Shown one piece after another: positions 13,488 through 33,353 of a stretch of 57,587 nt of DNA. A program made the translations under genes and the position numbers. The notes below the pieces were generated by a model that was not told the DNA's origin, did not search any database, and was given only the letters and a program-made list of their open reading frames with translations. The DNA lies in the IMG/VR virus record IMGVR_UViG_3300048853_000105, positions 1 to 57,587 of that record, one strand, 5' to 3'. Every line of letters starts with the position of its first letter. Position 1 is the stretch's first letter. Source of the DNA: a virus. Its lineage: Duplodnaviria > Caudoviricetes.

Positions 13488-13511
13488 ATGCTTAATTAAC
13501 ATAAAGAACAT
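13488..13511 (+). promoter_or_regulatory. 24-bp box copy 1
   Basis: ATGCTTAATTAACATAAAGAACAT. Confidence 0.55.
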
Positions 13512-13514
13512 ACG

Positions 13515-14369
13515 ATGAATCGAAGAATTTTAAAGGTCCAGCGACCAATATTACGATACCATGGTGGTAAGTTCTTACTTGCCGATTGGATCATTAGTCA
13601 TTTTCCTGAGCACGAAGTATATACTGAAACGTTTGGGGGTGCAGGAAGCGTCCTCTTGAAAAAGAATAGGACTTATGCTGAAGTCTACAACGACCTTGAT
13701 GGCGAGGTTGTAAACCTCTTCAGAATTGTGAGAGATAGAGGAGATGAGTTACGCGAAAAAATAAGCTTGACTCCGTTTTCTAGGGATGAATTCGTCAAGA
13801 GTTTCCGGCTAGTCAAAAATCCACTGGAACGAGCTCGACGCACCGTGATCCGCTCATTCATGGGGTTTGGAAGTGGCATTTCATTCAAAAGCACTGGTTT
13901 CAGAGCAAACTCAAACAGATCCGGAACAATCCCCGCACGTGACTGGTGCAATTTGCCAGATGCTTATACTGCGATAATAGAAAGGCTTAAAGGGGTTATC
14001 GTTGAGAATCGAGATTGGCACCAGGTTGCTCTGCAACATGATAGTGCAAAGACTCTTCACTTCTTTGATCCGCCATATGTCTTGGACACAAGGTTTATGG
14101 GACAAAAAACAAGTATTTACAAGTATGAGATGAGCGATGGCCAGCATGAAGATTTCTGCAGCAAATTGATATCACTTAAAGGAATGTCAATTATATCCGC
14201 GTATGATAATGATATCTACAACGATCTCCTTCCTGATTTCAGGAAAGTTCATTGTAAGGCTTATGCAGATGGAGCAAAGGAACGAGTTGAAACGCTCTTT
14301 ATAAGCCCAAATACACCCAAAAAGCAGAGTTCAATTTTTGATCTGATCAGAGAGGATATCGCATCATGA
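13515..14369 (+). CDS. DNA adenine methyltransferase (D12/Dam class)
   Basis: YHGGK, FGGAGSV, NDLD, DPPY. Confidence 0.92.
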   Translation: MNRRILKVQRPILRYHGGKFLLADWIISHFPEHEVYTETFGGAGSVLLKKNRTYAEVYNDLDGEVVNLFRIVRDRGDELREKISLTPFSRDEFVKSFRLVKNPLERARRTVIRSFMGFGSGISFKSTGFRANSNRSGTIPARDWCNLPDAYTAIIERLKGVIVENRDWHQVALQHDSAKTLHFFDPPYVLDTRFMGQKTSIYKYEMSDGQHEDFCSKLISLKGMSIISAYDNDIYNDLLPDFRKVHCKAYADGAKERVETLFISPNTPKKQSSIFDLIREDIAS

Positions 14370-15850
14370 GAATAAATTCAAATCAGTTTAACATCAACTT
14401 CCATCAGGAAGTCGTTGTTTCAGATGATCTTACCTGTGGGGAATTCTTCGCTGGTGGTGGGGGTTGGACATCTGGACTTGAAAAAGTTGAGGGAGTAAAA
14501 ACCTTGTGGATACTTAACCACGACAAAGTAGCGCTGCGAACCAATGCTTTTCATCATAAAGATGTGAAGGTCTACTGGGCAGACATTTATGCTCAAGATG
14601 AGCACGAGCTTGAATATGTGGACTATGTTCATGCTTCAATTGAATGCACACAGCATAGCAACGCGAATGCTGGTAAAGACAAGAAACTAGGATCCTACAC
14701 AATGGGATGGGAACTTTACCGCTACCTGAAATTCCTGAATCCACTGGTGATCAGCATTGAAAATGTACCTGAGTTTAAGAAGTGGGCACCGATTGATGAA
14801 AGAACCGGAAAGCCAGACAAAAAGCGTAAAGGTGAAGAATTTGAACGCTGGAAAAAAGCAATAATGGATTTAGGATATGAATATAAAGAGTCCATCCGAA
14901 ATGCTGCAGATGATGGTTTGCCTACCCGTCGGGTTCGTTACTTCGCATTCTTCCACAAGCCTGGTATAGATATTTCCTTTCCAGAGTTCACGCATGCGAA
15001 GTTTGCTAGTGACGGAAAAAAGAAGTGGAAGGCATGTAGAAAGCACATAGACACGGATGATGAGGGTGTAAGCATATTTGGCAGGCAGTTCAATCCGAAA
15101 ATCAGGAAACATCAAAGAAAGCCGCTTTCCCCAAACTCGCTACGACGCATAGCCGGTGGCATTAAGAAGTACTATCCAGAAGGCTTTCAGTTTTTAGCCC
15201 ATTACTATGGTGAAGATTTCAAGAGATATCAAAGCCTTGATGCTCCTATAAACACCATTACTACTGAAAACCGACATCAGCTGATTACCATGGAGAAAGT
15301 GAAGTTCATTATGGATCATTGCCACACAGATAACTTCAACACGTTAGATGATCCTTTGAATCCGCAATTAACCAGACAGACCAAGCAATTGGTGCATGTA
15401 GACAACTTTATTTGCCAGTATTACGGAGGTAGTGACCAAGTTCAAACGCTTGATGCTCCAATTAACACAGTTCCATGCCGGGACACCCATCAGTTGATCA
15501 GAGTTGAAAAGCTGCAGTTTATCGCGAAGTACTTTAACTGCAATGGCAACCCTGAATATAGTGTGCAGAGTCTGGAAGATCCTCTATCTACCATACTCGG
15601 AGATAATAAACATCAGCTAATTACCTTGCTTGATGATCTGGATATCAAAGCAAGGTTCCTGCGGCCAGATGAACTTGCGGGATGCAGCACCTTCGAGAAA
15701 GGTTATTTCGCTCATCCGGAACTGAAGCTTTCTCATAAGAATGCAGTGAAGCTGATTGGAAATGCTGTTCCGCCAAAATGGGCGACGGTATTAGTATCCC
15801 CAAATGTCAGTGCCATGAAGCAGTATAAGTTGAGAATGGAAGTAGCTTAA
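14366..15850 (+). CDS. C5 cytosine DNA methyltransferase
   Basis: FAGGGG, ASIEC, ENV, RRVR, IGNAVP. Confidence 0.88.
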   Translation: MRINSNQFNINFHQEVVVSDDLTCGEFFAGGGGWTSGLEKVEGVKTLWILNHDKVALRTNAFHHKDVKVYWADIYAQDEHELEYVDYVHASIECTQHSNANAGKDKKLGSYTMGWELYRYLKFLNPLVISIENVPEFKKWAPIDERTGKPDKKRKGEEFERWKKAIMDLGYEYKESIRNAADDGLPTRRVRYFAFFHKPGIDISFPEFTHAKFASDGKKKWKACRKHIDTDDEGVSIFGRQFNPKIRKHQRKPLSPNSLRRIAGGIKKYYPEGFQFLAHYYGEDFKRYQSLDAPINTITTENRHQLITMEKVKFIMDHCHTDNFNTLDDPLNPQLTRQTKQLVHVDNFICQYYGGSDQVQTLDAPINTVPCRDTHQLIRVEKLQFIAKYFNCNGNPEYSVQSLEDPLSTILGDNKHQLITLLDDLDIKARFLRPDELAGCSTFEKGYFAHPELKLSHKNAVKLIGNAVPPKWATVLVSPNVSAMKQYKLRMEVA

Positions 15851-16074
15851 TGGCTACCATCAAAGGAACTATAAACTAAAAACAAGCCGATTAATAACAA
15901 ACCAATTATACCAATCCACAATCTGAACATGGAGCCCTTAGGTTTAATTGCACGTCTATTAAAATACAGTGAAAATAATCCTAATGCGAAACAAATTGAT
16001 AATAATCCAAGCCCTAATAATTCAAAGTTGATCATGATTAAAGTTATAAAACAAACTAACATGTTTGCCGGCAC
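15847..16074 (-). CDS. Small two-TM membrane protein (moron); start uncertain
   Basis: Two hydrophobic helices, AT-rich, opposite strand. Confidence 0.5.
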   Translation of the reverse strand: MPANMLVCFITLIMINFELLGLGLLSICFALGLFSLYFNRRAIKPKGSMFRLWIGIIGLLLIGLFLVYSSFDGSH

Positions 16075-16124
16075 TAAGCGCTTGCAGATGAATGAAAGTA
16101 TTGATGGGTCTATTCAGCCGTCAA

Positions 16125-16427
16125 TCAGATTCGGGAATTGAAATAGATGTGATCGTAGTAAGCATCGATGATTTCGTCTTTAACCAGAAAAGGAATCTCA
16201 AAGGTACTTTGCAACAGAATTACTCGGTCGTCTTGTTCATCACGTACGAAAAAGTTAAACATGGCTCCAGTGATATCCATTGAAGATGCTTCTTTGATCT
16301 CAATGTCCAAACCATGATTCTTTACGATGGAATTCGCTATTTCCTCCAGCTTTCGAGTCTTAAGTTTGAACCCTGGATCATCAAAGTAACAAGGCGTTTT
16401 AAGCATGGTCAAATTTAACACTGGCAC
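16125..16427 (-). CDS. Hypothetical protein (moron)
   Basis: Fills gap on opposite strand. Confidence 0.5.
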   Translation of the reverse strand: MPVLNLTMLKTPCYFDDPGFKLKTRKLEEIANSIVKNHGLDIEIKEASSMDITGAMFNFFVRDEQDDRVILLQSTFEIPFLVKDEIIDAYYDHIYFNSRI

Positions 16428-16464
16428 GATAATCAGTACATTACTAAATCATTAATTTGCACAC

Positions 16465-16830
16465 ATGAGCAACAGTGAGAAAATAAACGTATACGTCTAC
16501 ACCGGTCTTCCTGACGAAAAAAGGAATGAGTTTACCTCGCGCACGAAAGAGCGTGATTCTGAAATCATTGTTTCTGAAGTATGCAGTGTATTATCGGTCA
16601 CTGTGGACCAGCTCAAAAGCAATACACGCAAGCGGGAAGTGGTAGAAGCCAGGTTCATTGCAATGGCGCTTATCATGATTGCAAATCCGGATTTAACATT
16701 GAAAGAAGTAGGAGCCATGTTCAATCGTGATCACTCGACTGTCGTTTATGCCCGGGATACCTACAAGAAGCTAATGGAAGGTGATAAAGCGTTTCAAGAT
16801 AAGGTAGCTTTGGTTAAGCAGAAGGTGTAG
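16465..16830 (+). CDS. DnaA C-terminal (domain IV)-like HTH protein
   Basis: RKREVVEARFIAM...LKEVGAMFNRDHSTVVYA. Confidence 0.85.
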   Translation: MSNSEKINVYVYTGLPDEKRNEFTSRTKERDSEIIVSEVCSVLSVTVDQLKSNTRKREVVEARFIAMALIMIANPDLTLKEVGAMFNRDHSTVVYARDTYKKLMEGDKAFQDKVALVKQKV

Positions 16831-16853
16831 GCCTAGCTTTTTTAATCAATAAT

Positions 16854-16877
16854 ATGCTTAATCAACGTATTGCGCAT
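16854..16877 (+). promoter_or_regulatory. 24-bp box copy 2
   Basis: ATGCTTAATCAACGTATTGCGCAT. Confidence 0.55.
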
Positions 16878-16900
16878 AAAGGAATAATTAACTAATTTAG

Positions 16901-17006
16901 CGGTTCGGTTGGTAGCCGTAAGACATTCTAACATTACCCTGTACACCATCTTATGCGTTCTGCATTCGATCCAAGCTACCAACCTTTGGTGTGCAGGGTA
17001 ATGTTA
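16901..17006 (+). promoter_or_regulatory. Structured leader RNA (a-b-a'-b' topology)
   Basis: GGTTGGTAGC (16907) / GCTACCAACC (16975); 20-bp stem 16929-16948 / 16987-17006. Confidence 0.7.
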
Positions 17007-17020
17007 TCAATCAACCTGGT

Positions 17021-17728
17021 ATGGATTATATAAAGCAGATAAATGCTTTCTGGGCTAAATGCGAGATGGATATGGATTTGAAGCCATCATCTTCAATCGT
17101 ATACCTGGCGTTGCTTCAGATCAATAACCGATGTGGTTGGAAGGATAGGTTTCGCGTTTCCTTTGGTCAGGTTCTAAGTATGACCGGAATAACCAAAAAC
17201 ACTTACTATTCAGCTTTAAAAGAATTGGTAGACGGTGGTTACCTGCTTTATGAAAAAGGTCCGAATCAGTATCAATCTGCCTTTTTTCAGATAAATATGC
17301 TATACCAAAATTTGGTACTGCATGAGGAAAGCACAGGGAACGCACTTGGTACTGCAAAGGGAATGCATCGGGAAAGCACAGGGAATATTCCTAAACCTTT
17401 AAAAACAACTAAACCAGAAACAGATAAAACTGTAGGTGGGAATAAAAGATTTATTCCACCATCACACACCGAGGTTCAGGAATTCTTTGAATCAAAAATC
17501 AATGAAACATTTTGGACTGCTGACCAATGCCAATTCCAGGCTCAAAGATTTGTGAACTTCTACGAATCAAAAAACTGGATGGTCGGAAAAACGAAAATGG
17601 CAAAATGGAAGTCTGCAGCATCTGGATGGGTAAACCGATCGATGGAAGATCAAAAGCAAAAGACCACAACTCAACCCCAAAAAGGTTTTCAAGCTGCCAT
17701 GGATATGTACAATAAACTAAAATTATAA
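17021..17728 (+). CDS. Phage replication initiator
   Basis: N-terminal wHTH; C-terminal FIPPS...FVNFYESKNW..KWKSAASGW; internal iterons. Confidence 0.8.
   Translation: MDYIKQINAFWAKCEMDMDLKPSSSIVYLALLQINNRCGWKDRFRVSFGQVLSMTGITKNTYYSALKELVDGGYLLYEKGPNQYQSAFFQINMLYQNLVLHEESTGNALGTAKGMHRESTGNIPKPLKTTKPETDKTVGGNKRFIPPSHTEVQEFFESKINETFWTADQCQFQAQRFVNFYESKNWMVGKTKMAKWKSAASGWVNRSMEDQKQKTTTQPQKGFQAAMDMYNKLKL
17303..17385. repeat. Iteron array, probable replication origin
   Basis: TTGGTACTGCA x2 (17312, 17346), GGAAAGCACAGGGAA x2 (17326, 17371), ~11-bp GG(A/T)A..GCA period. Confidence 0.7.
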
Positions 17729-17730
17729 TT

Positions 17731-18486
17731 ATGAATCAACTAGCCAATTCAAATTCAACTTTAGAGAAGTCGAAAGGTAAATATCAACATGTTCTATTGA
17801 ACCCTCCTGCATTCACATTTGATTACAGAACAGTTCACAACGAAGTTTTAACTCAAATCATGAAATCAGTAACGCATCTGAACTGGAGTGTGCCTGATCA
17901 AAATACGTTAGCGGTCCTGGTGACTGAGGTCAGCAAAGCCATAGTTGAGAAATACAAGACGCTCAGAAAAGAAGAAATATCAACCGCCTTCGCGAAAGGA
18001 ATCAGAGGAGAGTATGGCGAGTTTATGGGATTGAGTGTCATCACCTTTGAAAAATTTATTATCTCATACTTGGCAAGCGACTACCGGTCAGAACTAGGGA
18101 AGACTGTACCAAAAGCAGAGATTCCAGGACCATCCAAGGAGGTAACCCGGCAGGATAAGATCAACTGGGCTCAGAAGGCGTTCAAAGAATTTCAGCAATC
18201 CGGGTTCTATAATGACTTGGGAAACATAGTTTACATCTTTTTAGACTCAGAAAAGCTTATTCCATTCACAACTAAAGAGAAATTTGAAATTCTTGAAGAG
18301 GCTAGAAGGCAAGAATATGCCAGGCTGCAGAATCCAGCTACACCACACGAAGCCCGTAAGTTCAATAAACTCATAGAGGCTTTAATAGACAGCAACGATG
18401 CTATTCTGCCATTATCCAGACGTATTGCTCTGAACAAATATTTCAGAATCCTTGTCGATAGCGAGCAAGAACTAACATTTCATTAA
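17731..18486 (+). CDS. Replication-associated protein (helicase-loader position)
   Basis: Follows initiator; EEISTAFAKGIRGEYG. Confidence 0.55.
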   Translation: MNQLANSNSTLEKSKGKYQHVLLNPPAFTFDYRTVHNEVLTQIMKSVTHLNWSVPDQNTLAVLVTEVSKAIVEKYKTLRKEEISTAFAKGIRGEYGEFMGLSVITFEKFIISYLASDYRSELGKTVPKAEIPGPSKEVTRQDKINWAQKAFKEFQQSGFYNDLGNIVYIFLDSEKLIPFTTKEKFEILEEARRQEYARLQNPATPHEARKFNKLIEALIDSNDAILPLSRRIALNKYFRILVDSEQELTFH

Positions 18487-18513
18487 TTCCCAAACTGCAC
18501 AACTAAAAAGAAA

Positions 18514-18744
18514 ATGGACAATATATTAGTAAAGTCGGACCTTGATGTCTTCATCGAGAAGTATCAACCGTCAAAATTCAAGAAATTAAAAAACAGCGTC
18601 GAGGTGCGCAGCGTCGTAGATGTCGAATCAGCATCGAATAAAGCCACAGAATTGATTGATTCACTATCTCTGGGTTTGGTGGTCGTTCGAGACGCAAGCG
18701 CGGCTTGTAGAGGAGCTTTTGAGGTAAAGAAGGTTGAGGTATGA
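18514..18744 (+). CDS. Hypothetical protein
   Basis: Operon ORF. Confidence 0.6.
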   Translation: MDNILVKSDLDVFIEKYQPSKFKKLKNSVEVRSVVDVESASNKATELIDSLSLGLVVVRDASAACRGAFEVKKVEV

Positions 18745-19016
18745 GAGTCGGATCACTTGTCGAGTTGGTAGATGATAACTGGGATCTTACCAACGGATAC
18801 CCTGATGAGGTATATCCGGTTAAAAAAGTAATCTATACCGTGAGATCAATTGATGAATACGGAATAAGACTCGAGGAAATAATAAATCCTATTCATAGAT
18901 ACGCAGATATCGGTTATGATGAATGTGCTTTTAAAACATCCCGCTTCCGCGAACTCATGCCACCAACATCAATCAGCTTAGAATTGGTTTTGGAAAACGA
19001 ACTACAGGAGGCATAG
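18741..19016 (+). CDS. Hypothetical protein
   Basis: ATGA overlap. Confidence 0.65.
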   Translation: MRVGSLVELVDDNWDLTNGYPDEVYPVKKVIYTVRSIDEYGIRLEEIINPIHRYADIGYDECAFKTSRFRELMPPTSISLELVLENELQEA

Positions 19017-19018
19017 CC

Positions 19019-19162
19019 ATGACGGAACATGAAATCTTCCTGATGATGTACCGGGATTTTATGCATGCCTGCAGGATGATCGACATGCGAGCAAACCAGC
19101 ACCACATCATGTGCAGGAAAGTGATGATCTACAAAAGAATCCATGGAAAAGTACGAACTTGA
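19019..19162 (+). CDS. 47-aa hypothetical protein
   Basis: ATG 2 nt after previous stop (MTEHEIFLMMY). Confidence 0.45.
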   Translation: MTEHEIFLMMYRDFMHACRMIDMRANQHHIMCRKVMIYKRIHGKVRT

Positions 19163-19252
19163 TGAATTGGGTTTCCAAATAATATCCTATCAAAAATAAC
19201 ATTTGCATTTATCTCTTTTTTTATATACTTTTGAGTATCAAAAAGAAATAAC

Positions 19253-19744
19253 ATGAGTAAAGGAACTATCTTAACCTTTTCAGCTATCACAGAGAGGATT
19301 CAGCGACTTGTTTCCTTAACAAAGAAACTTAAAGAAGAAGAAAGTTATAGTATTTATAACCTGTGGGGCATTAAAGATGACTTTTTGGAAGATTATGAAA
19401 ATAACGGCTACTACCACGAGCGACTTGCAAATCGGGTTATCATGGGAGCTGTTAGAATTCGTGAGTCGACAAGTAAGAGATTGTCAGATGTAGAGTTAGC
19501 TCTTGAGCATCTGAGAAGGTTGTTGTCGAGCGTGATAAACCATTCGTTAAGTAGAATCACGATCGATTTTAAGTCAATGTATAGGTGCAAGGTTCCGATT
19601 CTATTTAAAAATCTTGATGATGCTCATATAACTAGCCAATTTTTAGAGAAAGTTAAAATTGAGTTTAGTTATATACATCATAGATACACACAGTGGACCA
19701 AGATAAATTGCAAACAGCAATTAGAATTGCTAACAGCTTATTAG
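19253..19744 (+). CDS. AT-rich moron protein
   Basis: Own TACTTTTG promoter element near 19226. Confidence 0.6.
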   Translation: MSKGTILTFSAITERIQRLVSLTKKLKEEESYSIYNLWGIKDDFLEDYENNGYYHERLANRVIMGAVRIRESTSKRLSDVELALEHLRRLLSSVINHSLSRITIDFKSMYRCKVPILFKNLDDAHITSQFLEKVKIEFSYIHHRYTQWTKINCKQQLELLTAY

Positions 19745-19938
19745 AAAATAAAGAATTATCATCAGAACACCGGATTCAGATAGAGCATCTTATAGCAGAG
19801 CTAGAATCCGGTATAAAAACAAAGAAGCTTGATTCTAAAAGGATCAAAGAAATTGTAAAAGAACTTTTTGATTGGCTTATGCTCTTGAAGCCCGTCCTTA
19901 AGGATATTATTGAATCATGGATACAGGGAAACTTTTAG
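19693..19938 (+). CDS. Small helical moron protein
   Basis: GTG start, overlaps both neighbours. Confidence 0.55.
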   Translation: MDQDKLQTAIRIANSLLENKELSSEHRIQIEHLIAELESGIKTKKLDSKRIKEIVKELFDWLMLLKPVLKDIIESWIQGNF

Positions 19939-20201
19939 CAGAATTAAGAAAGAAAAAAGGTTTAAGCCAAGCTGAGTTGGCTTCAGCTGCGGGTATTACC
20001 CAGGCCTCACTTTCACATATTGAAAATGGAAGTAAGAAGCCGCATAAAAGTACAATTGACAAGTTGTGTGAGGCATTAGACATGCCTCCACAAATGTTCT
20101 ACTTTCTAACAATTAGGGAAGAAGATCTTCCAGATAGCAGCCGTGAGAAGTTCACAAGCATAGAGAGCGATCTGAAGAAGTTGATATTGGATACTTTTTA
20201 A
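19917..20201 (+). CDS. XRE-family HTH protein
   Basis: LRKKKGLSQAELASAAGITQASLSHIENG. Confidence 0.9.
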   Translation: MDTGKLLAELRKKKGLSQAELASAAGITQASLSHIENGSKKPHKSTIDKLCEALDMPPQMFYFLTIREEDLPDSSREKFTSIESDLKKLILDTF

Positions 20202-20265
20202 ACTTGGTCCACATATATTGTCAACCCAATAGTTGTTTTTTACATTACTTATAAGATTTAGCAAA

Positions 20266-21907: not shown

Positions 21908-21945
21908 ATGCTCTTTTGACATTAACAGCATAATTACTATATTTG
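21908..21945 (+). promoter_or_regulatory. 24-bp box copy 3 plus promoter
   Basis: ATGCTCTTTTGACATTAACAGCAT, 6 nt, TATATTTG. Confidence 0.7.
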
Positions 21946-22218: not shown

Positions 22219-22220
22219 TT

Positions 22221-23366: not shown

Positions 23367-23711
23367 ATGTTACAATCCTACCAAACCCATCAGCAGCCGG
23401 CACGAACCAACGTTCGCAGCACGGTACAAGGTCAAACACCTGAAGCGATAATCCAGGCAGTCTGCGAAGCTTTAAAAGTGAATAAGGCTGATCTGCTTGG
23501 GCCAGAAAGATCTGGAAAACTCAAAGTAGCCAGGCGAATTGCGATCGGGTTAATCCTGATGGCGGATCCAATGATCACGCTAAAAGTGGTAGGGCAGATG
23601 TTCGGCCGGAATCATACCACCATCATCTACAACCGGGATCAGTTCTATGATCAGAACGGTACCAACCGGGAATTAACTAATAAAGTCAAGATGGTTACCT
23701 ACCTGTTATAA
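23367..23711 (+). CDS. Second DnaA C-terminal-like HTH protein
   Basis: VARRIAIGLI..TLKVVGQMFGRNHTTIIY. Confidence 0.82.
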   Translation: MLQSYQTHQQPARTNVRSTVQGQTPEAIIQAVCEALKVNKADLLGPERSGKLKVARRIAIGLILMADPMITLKVVGQMFGRNHTTIIYNRDQFYDQNGTNRELTNKVKMVTYLL

Positions 23712-24856: not shown

Positions 24857-25363
24857 ATGAAACCAGCATTAGCAAAAGCCATCGTTCACAATTGCCTTGA
24901 AAGGGGTTACATCATGGTAGGAGATAATTTGTATCCGCCAAATCATCCAAAGGCCATAGCTGCCGTCGAGATCAGAAACAAGCGGAAGCCGCGAACAACT
25001 CATATAAAGACAGGTGACATTCACGATATCAGGAACATTGCCAACAAGGAGAAGCAGAGAGACATGTTCACCATGCTTATGGAAAAGGAAGGGCTTGACT
25101 GTTGGCCAGAATTCTTTTTTAGCACAGAGAGACTGTTTCGCCTTGACTATAGCTTTCCTGAATACAAGATAGGTATTGAAGTTGATGGTGGCACATGGAG
25201 TAAGGAGCGTTCAGGTCATTCATCTGGTACTGGCCTTGCTCGTGATCGTGAAAAGAGTACGCTGCTGGCTACTTTAGGTTGGTCATTGATCAGAGTTACG
25301 CCTCAAGAACTATTAACAGCTAAAACCATTAAGACGATCAAGAAAATTATTTCAAATAAATAA
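24857..25363 (+). CDS. DUF559/Vsr-like endonuclease
   Basis: FRLDY..KIGIEVDGG...LGWSLIRVT. Confidence 0.75.
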   Translation: MKPALAKAIVHNCLERGYIMVGDNLYPPNHPKAIAAVEIRNKRKPRTTHIKTGDIHDIRNIANKEKQRDMFTMLMEKEGLDCWPEFFFSTERLFRLDYSFPEYKIGIEVDGGTWSKERSGHSSGTGLARDREKSTLLATLGWSLIRVTPQELLTAKTIKTIKKIISNK

Positions 25364-25402
25364 TGCTGCATCGACATAAATAGCATAATGTTTATATATT
25401 TG
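25363..25402 (+). promoter_or_regulatory. 24-bp box copy 4 plus promoter
   Basis: ATGCTGCATCGACATAAATAGCAT, 8 nt, TATATTTG. Confidence 0.7.
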
Positions 25403-25526: not shown

Positions 25527-26213
25527 ATGAACTTTTTAGAAACCACTCTTCGAGACATGGATCTTAGTGTTAGATTAGTCAATGCACTTGCAATAAAAGG
25601 TGTACTAACAATTAATGATTTACTTTATTCAGATCCAGTAAAACTGGAATCTACTCCGGGAATGGGGAAGAAGTATTATAAGGAAACTACTGATTTCGTT
25701 TTCCGTATTCAGCCGAGAATAATTGAAGCAATAAGGAAAGAAAGTCAAGTCGGCAAACCTACCGTACAACAAGATAGTAATATCCTTTCTTCATCTTTCA
25801 TTACTTCCGTACAGAAAGCTGCGTATAACGGGGCTAAGTCGGCGGTATTAGAATTACAAAGCAACCAAGTGGCTAGTGTACACTTAGAAGACGAGCGGCT
25901 TGATTATGCGGGAGCCGCCGAATATTTGGGAGTTTCAAAGCAGACTATTACCAAATATAAAAACAATGGCGTGCTCAAATTCTACCAAACTGGCCGAACC
26001 GTTTACTTTAAGAAGTCAGAAATTGATCAAGCCCTAGCATCTACAATTAATAACAAGAATAAACTTTATAAGAAGGTTTCTGATATCGAGGTTATACCTG
26101 AGTGGGCAAAAAAAATCGAGGATAATTACAACCATATTCAGACAAAGCTAATTGCTAAAATCAAAGAAAAAGACGCCATTATAGAGGATTTATGTAAGAA
26201 ACTAAATCAATGA
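25527..26213 (+). CDS. RNA polymerase alpha-CTD-like domain fused to excisionase-type HTH
   Basis: LSVRLVNAL...TINDLL...PGMGKK; LDYAGAAEYLGVSKQTI. Confidence 0.75.
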   Translation: MNFLETTLRDMDLSVRLVNALAIKGVLTINDLLYSDPVKLESTPGMGKKYYKETTDFVFRIQPRIIEAIRKESQVGKPTVQQDSNILSSSFITSVQKAAYNGAKSAVLELQSNQVASVHLEDERLDYAGAAEYLGVSKQTITKYKNNGVLKFYQTGRTVYFKKSEIDQALASTINNKNKLYKKVSDIEVIPEWAKKIEDNYNHIQTKLIAKIKEKDAIIEDLCKKLNQ

Positions 26214-26673: not shown

Positions 26674-26677
26674 CACC

Positions 26678-26932
26678 ATGAAAGAGAAAAAACGTTACAC
26701 AGTAGATGAAGTTATCGATGGCTTGGACAGAAGTAAGTATTCAATCAGTCGAAGTGTAAATCCAATAACATCCGAAACAACGGAGAACATGGCCGGTGTG
26801 TTAAATCACAAATTCCCACTTTTAAAGCCGGAACAAAAGAAAGGTTTCTTCGATAAATATTCCAGCATAATCATATCTTTCATTGCAGGTTTGATTGTGG
26901 GTGTAGTCGCCTGCTTACTTGATGGATTTTAG
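26678..26932 (+). CDS. Hypothetical membrane-anchored protein
   Basis: C-terminal TM. Confidence 0.6.
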   Translation: MKEKKRYTVDEVIDGLDRSKYSISRSVNPITSETTENMAGVLNHKFPLLKPEQKKGFFDKYSSIIISFIAGLIVGVVACLLDGF

Positions 26933-26935
26933 ATT

Positions 26936-27244
26936 ATGAAAACAGCAAATGAGATTCTTATAGAAAAAGACGTATATCAGGCACCAACCGAAACCCTTGA
27001 AGGGAGGGTAATCTCTTCTAATGTCGATTTGATAACCGAAGCTATGGAAGTCTACGCTGATCAGTTTAAACATAAATGGTATGACCTTTCCTTTATTCCA
27101 AAGAAGGAAACTCATCAAATATACTTCATAGATGATGATGGCGATTTCGGAACAATGTATGTTTACCAAAATACATGGATAGTGGACGCGAAAGAGGCTG
27201 GCCTTGTTAAGTGGTCATACCTACCCGAGCTTCCAGTAATGTAA
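26936..27244 (+). CDS. Hypothetical phage protein
   Basis: EAMEVYADQF; WSYLPELP tail. Confidence 0.65.
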   Translation: MKTANEILIEKDVYQAPTETLEGRVISSNVDLITEAMEVYADQFKHKWYDLSFIPKKETHQIYFIDDDGDFGTMYVYQNTWIVDAKEAGLVKWSYLPELPVM

Positions 27245-27265
27245 ATTCAGTAAAGTTATAAAACC

Positions 27266-27526
27266 ATGGCTTACCAAAAACAAACTAAATCAGACAACAG
27301 GCGTATCTGGAAAAAGACAGGTGTTGATCCTAAAGATGGGGAATCTTTATATAGAGCCGTAAACGTAAAGATCAAAAAGAAGTCTTTTGCAAGACCTATT
27401 ATTCTCACAGGCTGGACTGCTTCAAGATATATGATCGAATTATTCAACAAATCAAACCTAGTCAAAGTAACATCTAAAGAGATTGATGAAAATAGGTCCG
27501 TTGCTCATGAAAAGGTGATCCTATAA
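27266..27526 (+). CDS. Basic hypothetical protein
   Basis: Operon ORF. Confidence 0.6.
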   Translation: MAYQKQTKSDNRRIWKKTGVDPKDGESLYRAVNVKIKKKSFARPIILTGWTASRYMIELFNKSNLVKVTSKEIDENRSVAHEKVIL

Positions 27527-27540
27527 TTAAGATCTAGAAT

Positions 27541-27578
27541 ATGCTTATACAACATTAGGAGCATAATTACTACCTTTA
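27541..27578 (+). promoter_or_regulatory. 24-bp box copy 5 plus promoter-like element
   Basis: ATGCTTATACAACATTAGGAGCAT, 6 nt, TACCTTTA. Confidence 0.65.
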
Positions 27579-28045
27579 TGCTAATGAATGATCAACACTC
27601 TGCTTTAATGATCACCGTGCTGCAAAAGGATTACCCTGAAATTGCAAGTATGATCACTGAAAAGATCAGGATAAGCCTGCCTGAATGCTCGCTTGATGAC
27701 CTGCAGTATATTGATCCGATTGTTACCAGCTTCAAAAAGGAGAAAGGCATTACAGAGCAAAACTGGACCGAGGGAAAAAGCCGGGTGAAGATCACCGAAA
27801 GCCGAGAGCAGCTGACTGCGATCATTCTGCTATTCTATCATCCCGAAAAGCTTATGCAGTTGACATCAGGAAATACCAGGCTGGGCGTGCTCAAGACGTT
27901 ATCTGGAATTCTCGGAACATCAAGGGAGGTGCTAAGCCTCACTGTTGCAAATGCGATTGTGGCATTCAAAGCTTATGAGGACTTCCGGGTTGAAGTGTAC
28001 AGGCTCTATGAGCTGATCAAAATCGAAAATCAATTTTTCAAATAA
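27578..28045 (+). CDS. Hypothetical protein
   Basis: 155-aa ORF, TAATG-coupled to next. Confidence 0.65.
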   Translation: MLMNDQHSALMITVLQKDYPEIASMITEKIRISLPECSLDDLQYIDPIVTSFKKEKGITEQNWTEGKSRVKITESREQLTAIILLFYHPEKLMQLTSGNTRLGVLKTLSGILGTSREVLSLTVANAIVAFKAYEDFRVEVYRLYELIKIENQFFK

Positions 28046-28242
28046 TGGCAAAGCAAATTAAACCAAGGTACCCGGCTGATCGGGAGAAACAAAGCCAGGC
28101 GTTCGTGAACGGCCTTGTGAGCGTTAGTATTTACACCACAGATCCAGGTGTTCAAATTTTTATAAAAGGTGATCATTCAGATGAGGTGGTGAATGATCTG
28201 CAGAACGCGGTTGATGAAGTTCTGAATCATCACCAAAAGTAA
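28045..28242 (+). CDS. Hypothetical protein
   Basis: TAATG coupling. Confidence 0.6.
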   Translation: MAKQIKPRYPADREKQSQAFVNGLVSVSIYTTDPGVQIFIKGDHSDEVVNDLQNAVDEVLNHHQK

Positions 28243-28379
28243 ACCCCGGGTAGTGTTCCCGACGAGATTCGAATTCATATCACTTAAGCCCAGATCATAG
28301 TTCGGCTCCACAAAATCGGCTCCACAAAATTCAAGTCCTGAGGCTGCCGGGAATCCACAAGCACAGGCATAGCAATACA

Positions 28380-28733
28380 ATGGTTAAATTAAGAACAGCT
28401 TTAATGTTGATTGGCCTGGTGGTCATGTCAGCACTTTACCCGGTCCAGGTGAAGGCTCAGGAACAAACGGATAACAAGGAGTTAGTGTCCACGCAGGTTT
28501 TCTCTGGAGAAGAGAAGAATCTCACAGACAGCCTGCTTTCAGTTGGAAAGGCGTTGACTGATCCGGAACTGAAGGCTACAGTTGTCGATGCCGTGAACGT
28601 TATCAAATCAACTCCAAAGTCTGGCGGCATAGATGCATGGTATGCCTGGCTGGTCGCGGCCCTTGGTGCTGTCTTCGGAGTTTACCAATACGTCAAGCGG
28701 TCGCTGGCTAAACCTAAGCTCACGACATACTAA
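28380..28733 (+). CDS. Exported protein with C-terminal membrane anchor
   Basis: Signal peptide VKA-Q; C-terminal TM followed by KR. Confidence 0.65.
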   Translation: MVKLRTALMLIGLVVMSALYPVQVKAQEQTDNKELVSTQVFSGEEKNLTDSLLSVGKALTDPELKATVVDAVNVIKSTPKSGGIDAWYAWLVAALGAVFGVYQYVKRSLAKPKLTTY

Positions 28734-28752
28734 AACCTAACAGAAGAAATTT

Positions 28753-28780
28753 AAAAGCCTCGTTTATTCGAGGCTTTTTT
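28753..28780. terminator. Bidirectional terminator
   Basis: AAAAGCCTCG-TTTATT-CGAGGCTTTT between convergent genes. Confidence 0.8.
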
Positions 28781-28782
28781 CG

Positions 28783-29136
28783 TCAATGAGAATTTGCCAT
28801 AAGCTTTGATAACTCCCTGTTTTCATCAAGAAGGTTAATTACTTTCTTTTGAAGTACGATGATATGCTCCCTGGCAGCTGATAAGTCAACAATCAACTGA
28901 TTAACTTTTTCATTACTTTCTGTCATCGGGTGGTATTTCTCGATGCAAATGATATCCAGCACACTAACTTCAAATAAGTCCGCTAATTGATTTAACCTGG
29001 AAATGTTAATGTCCGTCATGCCTGTTTCTATCTTAGAGAGTGCCGGTATAGAGATATGTAATCTCTGAGCGACATGTTTCTGACTCCATCCATTTTTCTG
29101 ACGAAGCTTACGAATATTAATACCTATTATGTTCAT
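28783..29136 (-). CDS. XRE-family HTH regulator (moron)
   Basis: IRKLRQKNGWSQKHVAQRLHISIPALSKIETG. Confidence 0.9.
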   Translation of the reverse strand: MNIIGINIRKLRQKNGWSQKHVAQRLHISIPALSKIETGMTDINISRLNQLADLFEVSVLDIICIEKYHPMTESNEKVNQLIVDLSAAREHIIVLQKKVINLLDENRELSKLMANSH

Positions 29137-29226
29137 GTTTTAAAGTTTGAACCCAAAGCATATATCGCGATTACTCAAGGTTGATAATAAATTTAAAAAT
29201 AATTCTCATACTATTCGTCTGCCTAT

Positions 29227-29265
29227 ATGCTTATTTGACATATACAGCATTAATGCTTAATTTTA
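29227..29265 (+). promoter_or_regulatory. 24-bp box copy 6 plus promoter-like element
   Basis: ATGCTTATTTGACATATACAGCAT, 7 nt, TAATTTTA. Confidence 0.65.
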
Positions 29266-29270
29266 CGTTT

Positions 29271-30053
29271 ATGAAGCTGAACATGGCGAATCTTGATTTT
29301 GATGCTGATGTTAATCTGGATGACTTTTCCGGTGCTCTGGATATCAATCTGGAGTTTAAGACACGATACATCAAGCCGCCAAAATCAAAGGAAATCGCAG
29401 AAAGAAATTTGAAGTACAGCAATGCCGTGAAGCTTGCAACCGACATCAAACAGCTTAAAGATTACCGCTACTTTGTGTTAGTTAATGGCAGCTTTATCTT
29501 CGGTGACTTCATAGAGGCCTTTATTGTTCAGCATAATCTACACGTAAAGAAGATGACGATATCAACCTTGTCGCTGTCTGAAAACAATGTAGATAGCCTG
29601 GCAATCTTGCTGAACGGTGAGTATCTTGACAAGCTGAACCTGATTGTGTCGGACTACTTTTACTCACATGAACGAAGTAACCTGGTGCCATATCTGTACA
29701 AGGAACTGGATAAGGGCAATAAGTTCCAGTTAGCAGCAGCAAGCACCCATTGTAAGCTTTGCATATTCGAAACGTATTGCGGTCATCACGTTGTGATTCA
29801 TGGATCCGCTAATCTTAGGTCCAGCAGCAATATCGAACAGTTTGTAATTGAAGAATCTAAGCAGCTATACGACTTTAACGACAAATACCAGGAATTCATA
29901 ATCAAGAAATTTAAAACAATTAATAAAAGCGTAAGGGGGAAAGAACTATGGCATCAGGAAGTAGCGGTAAATCCAGTTCGGGAAGAGCTGGAGCTGGAAG
30001 AGCAAGCGCAGCAAGGCAAAGAGCTGCCAGGTATAGGTTTAACAGAAGGCTAG
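29271..30053 (+). CDS. Phospholipase D-superfamily-like protein
   Basis: HCK...HGSANL...NIE. Confidence 0.65.
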   Translation: MKLNMANLDFDADVNLDDFSGALDINLEFKTRYIKPPKSKEIAERNLKYSNAVKLATDIKQLKDYRYFVLVNGSFIFGDFIEAFIVQHNLHVKKMTISTLSLSENNVDSLAILLNGEYLDKLNLIVSDYFYSHERSNLVPYLYKELDKGNKFQLAAASTHCKLCIFETYCGHHVVIHGSANLRSSSNIEQFVIEESKQLYDFNDKYQEFIIKKFKTINKSVRGKELWHQEVAVNPVREELELEEQAQQGKELPGIGLTEG

Positions 30054-30079
30054 GAATCAGCAATTCTTCGCCGTTTTAA
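29948..30079 (+). CDS. 43-aa Ser/Gly/Arg-rich basic peptide overlapping the PLD-like gene
   Basis: MASGSSGKSSSGRAGAGRASAARQRAARYRFNRRLGISNSSPF; ends 9 nt before terS. Confidence 0.55.
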   Translation: MASGSSGKSSSGRAGAGRASAARQRAARYRFNRRLGISNSSPF

Positions 30080-30088
30080 TATTCAATC

Positions 30089-30481
30089 ATGGAACCTTAC
30101 AAAAAGCCCGATTTAGCAAAATTCATACGGGTTCTCAAAGCTAAAGCAGGGAACATATCGGAAACGGCAAAGGCACTAAAGGTAGGCCGCCGTACCATAT
30201 ACCTATGGAAGGAAACTGACCCGGAATTTAGAGAAGCAATTGAAGATCAGACAGAATCGCTGATCGACTTCGCAGAAAGTAAACTCCTCACATCTATCAA
30301 TAATGGTAGTGATACTGCCATCATTTTCTTTTTGAAAACAAGGGGTAAGGCTCGAGGCTACATCGAGAAATCAGAAGTTGATCATACAACTAAAGGTGAA
30401 AGTCTGAATAAGGCGCTTGAGAAACTGACCGACGAAGAGCTGGAACAAAAGATCCTTGAATTAAGGGATAAGATGCAATGA
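30089..30481 (+). CDS. terS: Terminase small subunit
   Basis: N-terminal HTH, AIIFFLKTRGK; ATGA overlap with terL. Confidence 0.8.
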   Translation: MEPYKKPDLAKFIRVLKAKAGNISETAKALKVGRRTIYLWKETDPEFREAIEDQTESLIDFAESKLLTSINNGSDTAIIFFLKTRGKARGYIEKSEVDHTTKGESLNKALEKLTDEELEQKILELRDKMQ

Positions 30482-31935
30482 CATTATTGGCTCCCTCAAG
30501 AAAGCTCTTGATCGAGCAGATGATCGCGGAGCAGGAAAAATTCAAGCGCTCCGCAAAAAAGACCGTTCTTAATTTTACGAAGTACACCTTTAATCATAAG
30601 TTTCAAGCAACCTGGTTTCATAATTCATATTACCAGAAGCTGGACGACTTTGCAGAAGGTAGGATCAAGAAGCTGATGGTATTTGTGCCGCCACAGCATG
30701 GTAAATCGGAAGGTTCTACACGTCGCTTACCGCCGTACATGCTCGGGAAGAATCCCGATAGGAAAATAGCTATTGCCTGTTACAATTCGTCAAAGGCTCG
30801 AAAGTTCAATAGGGAGATCCAGCGGATCATGGAAGATCCAAGCTACCAGGATATATTTCCGGAGTCAAAGCTTTCCAATGGTAGTGATGGCTACGCAAGA
30901 ACCAGCGACGAGTTTGAAATGCTTGATCATCGAGGCGGCTTAAAGTCGGTCGGTGTAGGTGGAGCCCTTACCGGCGAACCCGTAGATATCCTGATCATGG
31001 ATGACTTGTATAAGGATGCAATGTCTGCCTGGTCACCAAAGGTTAGGGAGAATGTTCAGGATTGGTACGATACCGTGGCTGACTCAAGGCTTCACAACGA
31101 TTCACAACAGCTGCTAGTTTTTACCCGTTGGCATCCGGATGATCTTGCAGGATACCTGTTAAAGCAAGAAGCGGATGATTGGGAGGTCATTGTTTATCCG
31201 GCGATCAAAGTTGGTGAACCGAATGACTATGATCCACGTGAAGAAGGTGAAGCGCTATATCCGGAAAAGCATAACATAGAAAAGCTGCTCAAGACAAAAA
31301 GCCGTAATAGCCATGTGTTTGAATGTCTTTACCAGCAGAACCCGACATCAAAGATTGGTTTGCTATACGAGCCATTCCGAACCTATACACCTGGCTTTTT
31401 ACCCTACACGTCAAAGGTCACCAGGAAGGCTCAAATTGATACAGCTGATAAGGGTACCGACTTTCTCTGTTCAATAACATACGACGAAATAGATACCGGT
31501 ATGTACATCACTGATGTGATTTACACTCAGGAACCAATGGTTAAGACTGAACCTAAGACTGCTTTGCAGATGATGAAACAGTCTGTACAGCATGCTAACG
31601 TGGAGAGTAACAACGGGGGTGAGGGATTTGCAAGAAACATCGAAAAAGGGACTAGAATGCTGGGTAACACAAAGACGCGCTTCTCTACCTATCACCAGTC
31701 CGAAAATAAAGAGGTGCGTATTTACACTAAATCTGCCGACGTGACCAACATGATATTTATGCCAGATGGCTGGGACAAACTGTTCCCAAAGTTCTACAAA
31801 GACGTAACTGAATATATGGCACAAGGTAATAACGAGCATGACGATGGACCGGATACATTGACTGCAATGGTCGAGAACTTCGGCAAAAACATAGTTGTAG
31901 CTGCTCAAAGCAAGGCAAAATTAGGATTCTATTAA
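30478..31935 (+). CDS. terL: Terminase large subunit
   Basis: PPQHGKS, IMDD, TRWH, YQQNP, HDDGPD. Confidence 0.95.
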   Translation: MTLLAPSRKLLIEQMIAEQEKFKRSAKKTVLNFTKYTFNHKFQATWFHNSYYQKLDDFAEGRIKKLMVFVPPQHGKSEGSTRRLPPYMLGKNPDRKIAIACYNSSKARKFNREIQRIMEDPSYQDIFPESKLSNGSDGYARTSDEFEMLDHRGGLKSVGVGGALTGEPVDILIMDDLYKDAMSAWSPKVRENVQDWYDTVADSRLHNDSQQLLVFTRWHPDDLAGYLLKQEADDWEVIVYPAIKVGEPNDYDPREEGEALYPEKHNIEKLLKTKSRNSHVFECLYQQNPTSKIGLLYEPFRTYTPGFLPYTSKVTRKAQIDTADKGTDFLCSITYDEIDTGMYITDVIYTQEPMVKTEPKTALQMMKQSVQHANVESNNGGEGFARNIEKGTRMLGNTKTRFSTYHQSENKEVRIYTKSADVTNMIFMPDGWDKLFPKFYKDVTEYMAQGNNEHDDGPDTLTAMVENFGKNIVVAAQSKAKLGFY

Positions 31936-31945
31936 AATTCACATA

Positions 31946-33316
31946 ATGGCTGAAGAAGAAGTAAAAAAAGAAATTGACAGCACTGACGTTCGCTCGTTGC
32001 TGCTGGGTGGTTTAGTTGATGAGGCAAAAGCTTTGTTTTCCACCAGGAAAGATAAGGTTGAGGCTGCTTTGAAGGAGTGGAACGTCGCAACCCATAAGAT
32101 TCACGACCGGCCAAAGAAGTACGTGGATAGCGAAGAGGTGCCTCAAGCAAAGATTCCGCTTCCATATCAAAGAAAGATCGTTCAGTCTGCTGTTGCTTTT
32201 TTGTTCGGTAAGCCGGTGAAGCTTATTCAGCAGAGCAAGGGCACCGATAAGGCTTTCAAGATGATAGATGAGCTTTGGACCAGTATGCGCATGGCCACCT
32301 TGAACCGAAAGAACGCCCGGACGTTGTTCTCTCAGACTGCTTCAGCTAAGCTTTTTGTTGAATATAGAGATCCTGAGGCGGAAGGAGCCGAAGCTTTCAA
32401 CAGCATCAAATGCATCCTGCTAAACAAAGAAAATGGCAATGATCTCTACTACAAAAAGGATCAATACGGCGTGATGCAGTCGATTGCTCGTGGATACACT
32501 TCTAAGAGTGGAGATAAGGTGATTGAACACTTTGACGCTGAGTTCTCAGACATCATTGTATCATGTTCAAAGATTGACGGCTTTTGGCAAGTCAAGCCAA
32601 CTACGAACCTGGCTAAGAAGATCCGTTACAGTTACTATGAGCAGGAAGAAACAGAATGGGACATTGTACAGGCCATTATTGAACGTCAGGAGATGCTTGT
32701 TTCTAAGCGCGCTGATAACAATGACTACACTGCAGATTCAATATTAGTACTTACAGGTGATGTGGAATCGCTGCCAGGTAAAGAAGAAACCGGCAAGGTT
32801 GTTAAGTTAACCGGCCAAGGCGCGAGTGCATCCTATCTTTCTCCATCAATGGCCATTGATATGGTTAAAGATGAGCGTACTACCTGGGATAATTACATCC
32901 TGTATTTCACAGACACTCCCGATCTTACCAGTGATCAGTTGAAAAGCCTTGGACAGGACAGCGGCAAAGCTCTTGAAATGAAGTTCTTTCCGGCAATCCT
33001 TAAAGCCATGGACAAGCTGGAGCTTTTCGAGGAAATGATCGATCGTGAAATCAACATTTTAAAGGCTATGATCAAGAACATCATAGATGTGAGCCAAAGC
33101 ATGGCAGAGGAACTGAAAAACCTGAAGATCAGTTACGAGTTTGGAAATCCACTACCAGATAACATCAAAGAGTTCATGGAAACCTTATCGACTGCAGTGG
33201 GAGGTAAGCCGATCATGAGCCGCAAGAAAGCTGTTGAGCTTAACCCGCTCGTCAAAGATGCTGATGCTGAAAATTTGCAGATGGATAGCGAGGAACTATC
33301 TACTATTGAAGATTAA
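31946..33316 (+). CDS. Portal protein (SPP1 type)
   Basis: Follows terL; AFLFGKPV, SGKALEMKF. Confidence 0.88.
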   Translation: MAEEEVKKEIDSTDVRSLLLGGLVDEAKALFSTRKDKVEAALKEWNVATHKIHDRPKKYVDSEEVPQAKIPLPYQRKIVQSAVAFLFGKPVKLIQQSKGTDKAFKMIDELWTSMRMATLNRKNARTLFSQTASAKLFVEYRDPEAEGAEAFNSIKCILLNKENGNDLYYKKDQYGVMQSIARGYTSKSGDKVIEHFDAEFSDIIVSCSKIDGFWQVKPTTNLAKKIRYSYYEQEETEWDIVQAIIERQEMLVSKRADNNDYTADSILVLTGDVESLPGKEETGKVVKLTGQGASASYLSPSMAIDMVKDERTTWDNYILYFTDTPDLTSDQLKSLGQDSGKALEMKFFPAILKAMDKLELFEEMIDREINILKAMIKNIIDVSQSMAEELKNLKISYEFGNPLPDNIKEFMETLSTAVGGKPIMSRKKAVELNPLVKDADAENLQMDSEELSTIED

Positions 33317-33317
33317 A

Positions 33318-33353
33318 ATGTTGAAAAAACGTAAAGAGCATAACATACCTTTG
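33318..33353 (+). promoter_or_regulatory. 24-bp box copy 7 plus promoter
   Basis: ATGTTGAAAAAACGTAAAGAGCAT, 4 nt, TACCTTTG. Confidence 0.6.

Follow-up and report, generated by a model that had tools for sequence, protein, structure and literature searches.

In several phages, repeat or dyad elements straddle or replace the −35 element of weak promoters served by a small phage activator: the λ CII repeats flank −35, the P1 Lpa palindrome lies near −22 and the Mu Mor/C dyads lie near −43. The element described here, a 24-bp box with the consensus ATGCT-N5-RACRT-N4-AGCAT, recalls these sites, although its motif and spacing, the protein families and the host phylum all differ, and we know of no report of an intragenic copy following the lineage variant in the λ CII, P1 Lpa or Mu Mor/C systems. 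The box recurs along the IMG/VR record IMGVR_UViG_3300048853_000105 (57,587 nucleotides, analysed at its full length and hereafter called the window), which is in its entirety the complete provirus of a siphovirus-type temperate phage of Pedobacter. In our favoured reading, to which we give an even chance, the box is a phage control element in the upstream half of host-sigma promoters, where it would dock one or more phage proteins and switch operons on.

The closest working analogue is provided by the T4 middle promoters, where, in the available excerpt of PMC2988021, MotA and AsiA co-activate dozens of promoters through an element near −30 that replaces the upstream contact, the host −10-type element being kept. 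The centre of our box, counted from the inferred transcription start, lies at about −30.5, and its left arm with the adjoining flank (wwATGCTTA) resembles the MotA consensus (a/t)(a/t)(a/t)TGCTTtA, which we regard as a coincidence. The MotA box is a 9-bp asymmetric element bound by a monomer 12±1 bp from −10, whereas ours is tripartite, spans 24 bp and has inverted arms, and its MotA-like left arm lies ~26 bp from the downstream −7 element. Unlike in T4, the host sigma is here of the Bacteroidota type and the phage is temperate; a search of 48 open reading frames (ORFs) against PHROGs and Pfam gave no match to the MotA and AsiA families, small ORFs and remote homologues not being excluded by it. 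The stoperators of the Cluster A mycobacteriophages L5 and Bxb1 are similar in another way. In the available excerpts of PMC6550527 and PMC9283540, they occur, like our box, in many copies oriented with transcription, some in promoters and some in transcribed regions, and have a motif for each lineage that co-varies with the binding protein. By contrast, stoperators number 20–30, measure 13–14 bp, lie mostly outside promoters and are all bound by the immunity repressor, whereas our box occurs at 7–9 sites of 24 bp. A −7 element comes at a fixed gap past 28 of 38 boxes, and box class varies independently of the CI-type immunity repressor.

Seven sites in the window match the consensus with at most one mismatch, all on the plus strand (four perfect and three with one mismatch; Table 1), against a mean of 0.06 and a maximum of 1 in 100 dinucleotide shuffles, none of which reached seven; the pattern read backwards, used as a control, had no match. 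The sevenfold repeat reported by a first-pass annotation of this DNA is thus borne out at the same coordinates and on the same strand. That annotation had also asked whether the motif stands out from an AT-rich intergenic background. In the intergenic sequence alone (66 segments, 11,543 bases, 37% GC, delimited with a crude gene mask) the box stays significant, with five copies where 1000 dinucleotide shuffles average 0.001 and never exceed 1, and where the analytic expectation is 0.003. Gene calls in the window are crude, and the other two boxes fall outside this count because spurious long ORFs of the mask cover them. A scan with a position weight matrix (PWM) adds three sites, two of them degenerate (9532 and 38706) and one weak and doubtful (3182). 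Across 30 aligned boxes, ATG (positions 1–3) and AT (23–24) are invariant, and CAT (13–15) and G (21) are found in at least 90%; the box is tripartite, with the left arm ATGyk, the centre rACAT and the right arm rGCAT. We found no description of this element in the open literature, subscription journals being outside its coverage.

Relatives of the window (itself numbered G000) were found through TerL, ORF 27578 and the protein encoded at 8860. They comprise six whole records (G002, G006, G007, G008, G016 and G017) and one partial record, that of L064. They are mosaic, with 65–88% nucleotide identity over the alignable parts, and their named hosts are Pedobacter species, G008 being a prophage of P. 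metabolipauper DSM 19035. A megablast of window positions 13000–34000 against 50,697 phage records gave no match. Among the sequencing runs listed as containing the stretch there is no RNA run; one DNA run contains it and may be its source. The box is phage-specific: in the P. metabolipauper genome (5.3 Mb), a loosened pattern has five matches, all of them on one strand and inside the prophage, within 25 kb, and four other genomes (~27 Mb) contain two matches. A scan of IMG/VR with the strict pattern returned 21 contigs with a single match each, about the chance level, among which the only relatives are G002 and the record of L064. A further contig, G001, has two box matches but no similarity to the window and was dropped. 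Without exception, the eight copies of the window and those curated in the relatives are oriented with rightward transcription.

The boxes are linked to promoter elements of the host type. In the available excerpts of PMC6847099 and PMC2483708, the primary sigma factor of Bacteroidota uses TAnnTTTG as its −7 element, the former numbering it T−12, A−11, T−8 to T−6 and G−5, with transcription starting 4–5 nt downstream. A match of at least 5/6 to this element is found 3–9 nt past 28 of 38 curated boxes from seven phages, against 4.5% of random positions and 7.9% of AT-rich random positions, and a perfect one past 14 of the 38, against 0.2% and 0.7%, respectively. The modal gap is 6–7 nt, and 8–9 nt in G017. 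In the window alone, five of the eight boxes are followed by the element, one more has it at +15 and two are without it. As the first-pass annotation had noted, TAnnTTT(G/A) follows five boxes at 4–8 nt (starting 6, 8, 6, 7 and 4 nt past boxes 21908, 25363, 27541, 29227 and 33318) and TAATTTAG starts 15 nt past a sixth, box 16854; in the orthologues of the latter in G002, G006, G008, G016 and G017 this gap is 15–18 nt. With the published numbering, the box would span about −43 to −19 of a putatively active promoter, with its ACAT centre near −30. The −33 element TTTG, whose spacing to −7 is 19–21 nt, occurs at the corresponding box positions (8–11) in 10 of 38 boxes overall and in two of the eight in the window. 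A scan for σ70-type promoters was uninformative overall (50 matches against 48.2 in shuffles); its top match in the region scanned is box 21908.

The downstream genes are those previously listed, namely Dam and C5 methyltransferases, a replication initiator, small ORFs, an operon with an αCTD/HTH_17 fusion, ORF 27578 and the packaging operon, which starts at ATG 29271 downstream of box 29227. The suggestion that the box serves a middle/late regulator proved too narrow, as all rightward operons that come after the first early operon are headed by a box, those for helicase, methyltransferases and replication among them. The box-bearing junctions common to the relatives, constant in orientation, lie after the homologue of the 8860 protein, after the helicase, before the replication genes, before the homologue of ORF 27578, before the packaging genes and after the portal gene, and a box is typically found past a leftward gene cassette or at the end of an operon. 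Box promoters would in this way restart rightward transcription at operon junctions. Box 13488 is not a promoter for the Dam methyltransferase gene, because no −7 element follows it; G008 (at 5384) and G017 (at 5287) carry a box at the equivalent junction.

Table 1. Box copies, candidate regulators and a non-coding stretch of the window, in order of position (HTH, helix-turn-helix).
Feature	Coordinates	Strand	Details
LuxR/GerE-type HTH protein	2683–2937	+	84 aa; opens the rightward early operon; candidate binder
Weak, doubtful box copy	3182–3205		From PWM scan
Box copy 0	9532–9555	+	Degenerate, 2 mismatches; ATGCGCGAACAACATACAGCGCAT, ATGCGC…GCGCAT; PWM score 29
Box copy 1	13488–13511	+	1 mismatch; Dam methyltransferase ATG 3 nt downstream; no −7 element
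Small DnaA-C protein, paralogue 1	16465–16830	+	Domain IV only; Pfam Bac_DnaA_C, E 1.5e-17
Box copy 2	16854–16877	+	1 mismatch; upstream of replication-initiator operon; TAATTTAG at 16893–16900
Box copy 3	21908–21931	+	Perfect; TTTG inside, 19 nt upstream of TATATTTG (21938–21945); heads small-ORF region
Small DnaA-C protein, paralogue 2	23367–23711	+	Domain IV only; Pfam Bac_DnaA_C, E 1.1e-13
Box copy 4	25363–25386	+	Perfect; TATATTTG at 25395–25402; heads αCTD/HTH_17 operon
Box copy 5	27541–27564	+	Perfect; TACCTTTA at 27571–27578; putative promoter of ORF 27584–28045
ORF 27578	27584–28045	+	153 aa from ATG 27584; two N-terminal helices, then a cryptic DnaA-domain-IV-like fold (model); candidate binder
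Box copy 6	29227–29250	+	Perfect; TTTG inside, 20 nt upstream of TAATTTTA (29258–29265)
Box copy 7	33318–33341	+	1 mismatch; directly past portal stop; TACCTTTG at 33346–33353
Non-coding stretch, ~90 nt	33358–33448	+	After portal gene; predicted to be driven by box 33318; canonical terminator, stem 33415–33442 then T6
Degenerate box copy	38706–38729	+	30 nt inside first tail gene (38676–39107); PWM score 22; no −7 element

Each lineage has its own variant of the box, common to its 4–9 copies: ATGCT..rACAT..mGCAT in the window, G002 and L064, ATGtt..ACAT..CGCAT in G008, ATGTT..ACATATT.AGTAT in G006, ATGnT..ACATA..GCGAAT in G016, ATGCTCTtT..atAt..GGAAT in G007, ATGCATAAAgGTAAa..TGCAT in G017 and GTGCT..AACTAT..AGCAC in the L069 clade. 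This last, distant clade (L067, L069, L070 and L078) carries TTTGTGCT-N14-AGCACAAA at the promoter of its homologue of ORF 27578. In G006, G007, G008, G016, G017 and the L069 clade, the same codons of the first tail gene carry the variant of the lineage concerned, with amino-acid changes by lineage from MLYQHI to MLFEYT, MLKDHI or VLNQTI. At the level of sequence, such concerted change implies a phage-encoded, co-evolving trans-acting factor, because the host polymerase is the same across one genus and yet a promoter-less site changes in concert. The box, being phage-specific, linked to promoters and changing in concert within each genome, is thus best read as the putative site of a phage-wide regulator, as originally suggested. 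Its proposed distinctness from the AACATGTT repeats of the lysogeny switch also holds, since the window and G008 agree in box class while their switch repeats differ and their CI proteins are only 28% identical.

We infer binding by a phage protein, the identity of that protein and activation as follows. One or two phage DNA-binding proteins, whose specificity would have co-evolved with the box, would dock on it between about −43 and −19, most probably the early LuxR/GerE-type protein, made from the first rightward gene after induction, and the product of ORF 27578. The bound factor would take over the weak or absent −33 contact while the host primary sigma would still use TAnnTTTG at −7, and delayed-early, middle and late operons would be switched on together. 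We favour activation because 28 of 38 boxes have no TTTG at −33, because the candidate gene of LuxR type that covaries with the box is the first of the early lytic operon, and because A or T is kept at −5 in the orthologous promoters of ORF 27578 and of the packaging operon, a position that is a nearly invariant G in the host consensus (PMC6847099, available excerpt).

Several points weigh against this reading. The −33 element is weak in ordinary Flavobacterium promoters as well (same excerpt of PMC6847099), and the box sites in the relatives are a curated set, picked with a PWM trained on the sites of the window itself or by inspection of homologous positions. Other points speak for a repressor. 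In this rival explanation, a strong one although we hold it to be rather unlikely, the box is a repressor operator and roadblock, similar to a stoperator, at which, for example, the ORF 27578 protein, limiting its own synthesis in the lysogen, would silence or time the lytic operons. The span −43 to −19 is the usual position of a repressor, that of the classical operator. A perfect −7 element in 14 of 38 box promoters means that an activator may be unneeded, and boxes 21908 and 29227 in addition have TTTG at the right spacing, their promoters looking competent alone. Two types of copy are not promoter sites at all, 13488 with its orthologues (3 nt before an ATG) and the copy in the tail gene; an activator site would be useless there, and these copies too are all oriented with transcription. 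A box at the candidate's own promoter is typical of self-repression. Moreover, in the tail-only elements described below the tail promoter has no box, and the box of the first tail gene lies ~150 nt downstream. Finally, one orientation, lineage-specific motifs and covariation with the binder are combined in Cluster A stoperators (PMC6550527, available excerpt). Against repression, the box class does not depend on the immunity repressor (the dissimilar CI proteins of the window and G008 accompany one box class), 28 of 38 copies are located in promoters, unlike most stoperators, and a covarying gene at the head of a lytic operon would be odd for a lysogeny repressor. The relatives have no conserved leftward, lysogeny-side regulator in common, and a second repressor insensitive to the SOS response would require an anti-repressor in addition.

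A composite operator represents a more elaborate version of activation that we find distinctly doubtful. It would have the ORF 27578 protein read the arms and the centre and the LuxR/GerE-type protein read the right arm, the two jointly replacing the −33 contact and redirecting the host polymerase to all non-immediate-early operons; at promoter-less copies the complex would form a roadblock or pause site, and selection on these copies would be strong enough to alter the tail protein by lineage. If true, this would represent a switch resembling sigma appropriation in a temperate phage of Bacteroidota.

The inverted arms of the box raise the question of a hairpin in RNA or single-stranded DNA, which on transcripts reading through from the upstream operon would serve termination or processing or would load an antitermination factor. 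We consider this very improbable as the function of the box, even though the arms are complementary beyond every shuffle: 74.2% of positions are paired against 67.6% in shuffled sets (0 of 500 shuffles reach this value; slid controls give 33–52%), and the arm covariation score is 0.277 against 0.184 (again 0 of 500). Besides, T·G and G·T combinations, which pair only in the RNA of the plus strand, are frequent, and the intragenic and pre-ATG copies are certainly transcribed. The folding of the individual copies tells otherwise. Three of the nine window copies fold better than shuffles, 9532 (−17.3 kcal/mol, z −6.4), 21908 (z −3.5) and 27541 (z −2.1); the other six do not, and in four the best fold is not the hairpin of the two arms. 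The arms of G016 and G007 (ATGnT…GCGAAT or GGAAT) are unable to pair, yet 4–7 copies are kept. A hairpin is therefore not a common property of the boxes. The 12–14 nt 'loop' contains the conserved, lineage-specific centre, no U-run follows the arms, and the fixed gap to the −7 element would have no explanation; a scan for intrinsic terminators over the region containing six of the eight window boxes flagged none of them, whereas the phage's real terminator (33415–33448) is canonical and quite unlike the boxes. The site at 9532 differs from the others. With its flanks it forms a 10-bp perfect palindrome in the gap between the genes 8860–9510 and 9575–9904, and this type of site, the first box of each genome, keeps complementary arms of 10–12 bp by compensatory changes across seven lineages; the orthologues in G002, G006, G007, G008, G016 and G017 have arms that differ in sequence and still pair. 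Its arms are of the CGCAT/AGCAT type whatever the lineage variant, and it may well combine a hairpin with a box.

Hardly credible, finally, is an extended promoter consensus read by the host RNA polymerase alone and spread by duplication or gene conversion like the long consensus common to T4 early promoters: the centre and the right arm (CATAtt and CATAAT) do fall near −28 and −18, where ordinary promoters show AT-rich motifs (PMC6847099, available excerpt), and TTGACA-like centres 16–18 nt from TAnnTT score as σ70-like, but host genomes lack the motif except in the prophage, selection in hosts of a single genus would not give each phage lineage its own arms and centres, the promoter-less tail-gene copy follows the lineage variant, and the −7 element is missing from the copies at 13488, 5384 and 5287. 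Three further ideas were dropped on reasoning alone: a homing-endonuclease target (the boxes are unconnected with HNH genes), origin iterons or a pac site (the copies lie at operon starts across 29 kb), and mini-ORFs starting at the box ATG (3–14 codons, inconsistent, and upstream of the inferred transcription start).

Returning to activation, two phage proteins emerge as its candidate effectors. The LuxR-type protein, already named as a possible binder, matches Pfam GerE (PF00196, E 8.7e-8, 32.1 bits against a cut-off of 23.5) and has homologues at the same position in G006, G007, G016 and G008. The comparison covers these five phages, the left ends of G002, the L064 record and G017 being missing. 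In all five, the class of the recognition helix matches box base 22 (GCAT in the window and G008, GTAT in G006, GAAT in G007 and G016). The family groups in the same way as the box classes: members of one class are 74% and 64% identical, and members of different classes at most 60%. None of the 27 other ortholog families common to the five phages groups in this way, and the LuxR class does not follow the immunity type. The case has several weak sides. It amounts to five phages, three classes and one base, a random partition of the same shape matching once in 15; the clustering margin (64% against 60%) is narrow; and the G006 gene (oriented 1411–1668) contains an in-frame TGA after codon 29, due to either prophage decay or a sequencing error. 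The 12-kb tail-only elements have boxes of their own variant but no GerE protein. This candidate survives the comparison and gains support from its covariation with the right arm. Four contigs with LuxR-like genes (L085, L087, L089 and L090) were set aside as unrelated to the window and without boxes.

The second candidate, ORF 27578, was not among the binders proposed at first. It is the sole protein with a DNA-binding fold found in all box-bearing elements, and a box or palindrome is present at its promoter in 12 of the 16 elements examined, none being recognised in L071, L072, L080 and L081. Its start at 27584 is where the homologues, only 14 in number, begin. In seven of seven phages the ATG lies 4–5 nt past the −7 element, a distance that would suit a genuine transcription start and because of which its mRNA is probably leaderless. 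The protein has no Pfam or PHROG match, PF08299 giving none even at E ≤ 5, and a six-frame search of the window with PF08299 found only two other genes. Its AlphaFold2 model is of moderate quality (pLDDT 71; one of five models confident). VIA-align nevertheless ranks four DnaA domain IV structures first among 48,161 chains (Z 8.6–9.8, the next row at 4.9; rmsd 2.6–3.1 Å over 91–95 aligned residues), and residues ~40–152 superpose on the whole of this domain (PDB 3pvp and 1j1v; Z 8.7–9.8, rmsd 2.6 Å, 91–94 residues). Foldseek gives TM scores of 0.69–0.76 relative to the target with E 1.7–2.8, not significant alone; hhalign against the DnaA-C proteins of the phage gives a probability of 2% and E 0.022 with the register as expected; and a rank-22 Atlas cluster in which PF08299 occurs on 23% of members (score 0.78) is a lead only. 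DnaA itself also serves as a transcription factor, one that can halt elongation at boxes inside genes. Unlike DnaA, the ORF 27578 protein has no AAA+ domain, and the box is unlike TTATCCACA beyond its AT-rich start; DnaA domain IV binds a 9-mer as a monomer, whereas the box has 24 bp.

Two points tell against ORF 27578 as the binder: its similarity to DnaA-C exists at the fold level only, and the protein does not cluster by right-arm class. The lineages with ACAT centres are 50–71% identical to one another in this protein, and those of G007 and G017, whose centres are not ACAT, are 41–45% identical to the others and 52% to each other. An attempt to match its recognition-helix region with the arm class was given up for lack of a simple correspondence, the window and G002 having the same arms and a different region. 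The prediction of a homodimer scored 0.30 against a mark of 0.42, which is not evidence either way.

The remaining binders initially proposed do not survive the comparison. The Pfam-level DnaA-C proteins are present in the window, G002 and G006 but absent from G007, G008 and G016, which have boxes. The αCTD/HTH_17 fusion is unique to the window, PF03118 being found in none of five relatives and tblastn giving no match, and its neighbours are likewise unique. This fusion (25527–26213, downstream of box 25363) joins a segment similar to the C-terminal domain of the RNA polymerase alpha subunit (PF03118, E 1.4e-8) to HTH_17 and is possibly an unusual polymerase-mimicking factor.

Regulon boxes in phage promoters are already known; what is new here is the motif, its tripartite form and its setting in promoters of the Bacteroidota type, as well as the lineage-by-lineage concerted change that includes a coding copy and a candidate regulator family with a predicted, hidden DnaA-domain-IV fold. 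Almost nothing is known of gene timing in temperate phages of Bacteroidota, whose host promoters differ from the Escherichia coli model, and we found no activator or operator of such a phage described in the open literature. The box supplies a defined 24-bp element and a map of 7–9 putative promoters per phage in at least seven lineages, together with natural specificity variants (GCAT, GTAT and GAAT arms; ACAT, ATAT and GGTAAA centres). Because there are two named candidate proteins and such natural variants, and because one of the prophages resides in the public type strain P. metabolipauper DSM 19035, the question is directly testable. If ORF 27578 is the binder, it would found a new family of phage regulators on the DNA-binding fold of DnaA, and box promoters could serve as inducible parts for the genetics of Sphingobacteriia.

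The genes of the window are arranged as a leftward CI-like S24 repressor, the rightward LuxR/GerE-type gene, RecT and an exonuclease, a SNF2 helicase, two DNA methyltransferases, the replication initiator and several small regulators, followed by the terminase, portal, head and siphovirus-type tail genes and the integrase. In the switch region (2580–2660), a rightward −7 element TAGATTTG (2612–2619) faces a leftward TACCTTTG (minus strand, 2635–2642), and two AACATGTT palindromes 21 bp apart lie just upstream of the rightward one; the leader TTGTACAATTAAAACAAAGGTA between the facing elements is kept in G006, G007, G008 and G016 despite differing CI genes. The protein encoded at 8860–9510 is the most conserved early protein (81–97% identity among relatives) and has no family match; its acidic C-terminal tail, DFDEAASDME, is reminiscent of single-strand DNA-binding proteins. 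The SNF2-type helicase (10145–12877) has 910 aa in the window against 563 aa in G002, G006, G007 and G008; the extra ~1 kb (~10512–11539), missing from the alignments of the relatives, contains a LAGLIDADG domain match and looks like an intein or a homing-endonuclease insertion. The relatives lack full-length counterparts, at the same positions, of two NUMOD4/HNH homing-endonuclease genes (6557–7093 and 12881–13486), which look like free-standing mobile insertions beside the recombination and helicase genes. Past box 16854 and TAATTTAG, positions 16901–16930 (cggttcggttggtagccgtaagacattc) are conserved at the DNA level in G002, G006, G008, G016 and G017, even where a different replication-initiator gene lies downstream, and may represent an origin, a leader or a small RNA. 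The non-coding stretch after the portal gene matches no Rfam family, the Rfam and tRNA scans of the window being empty; its terminator-proximal part is kept in all relatives, and in G008 a tRNA-like sequence is seen at this position. Lastly, the four members of the L069 clade are 12-kb elements in Pedobacter genomes (e.g., L069:5193–17379) that have tail genes without head genes. They carry two HTH_3 repressor-like genes, a replication initiator and homologues of window genes 17731, 18514 and 27578, followed by the tail genes, and no head or packaging genes are found within their 10-kb flanks; they could be tailocin-like or satellite-like remnants.

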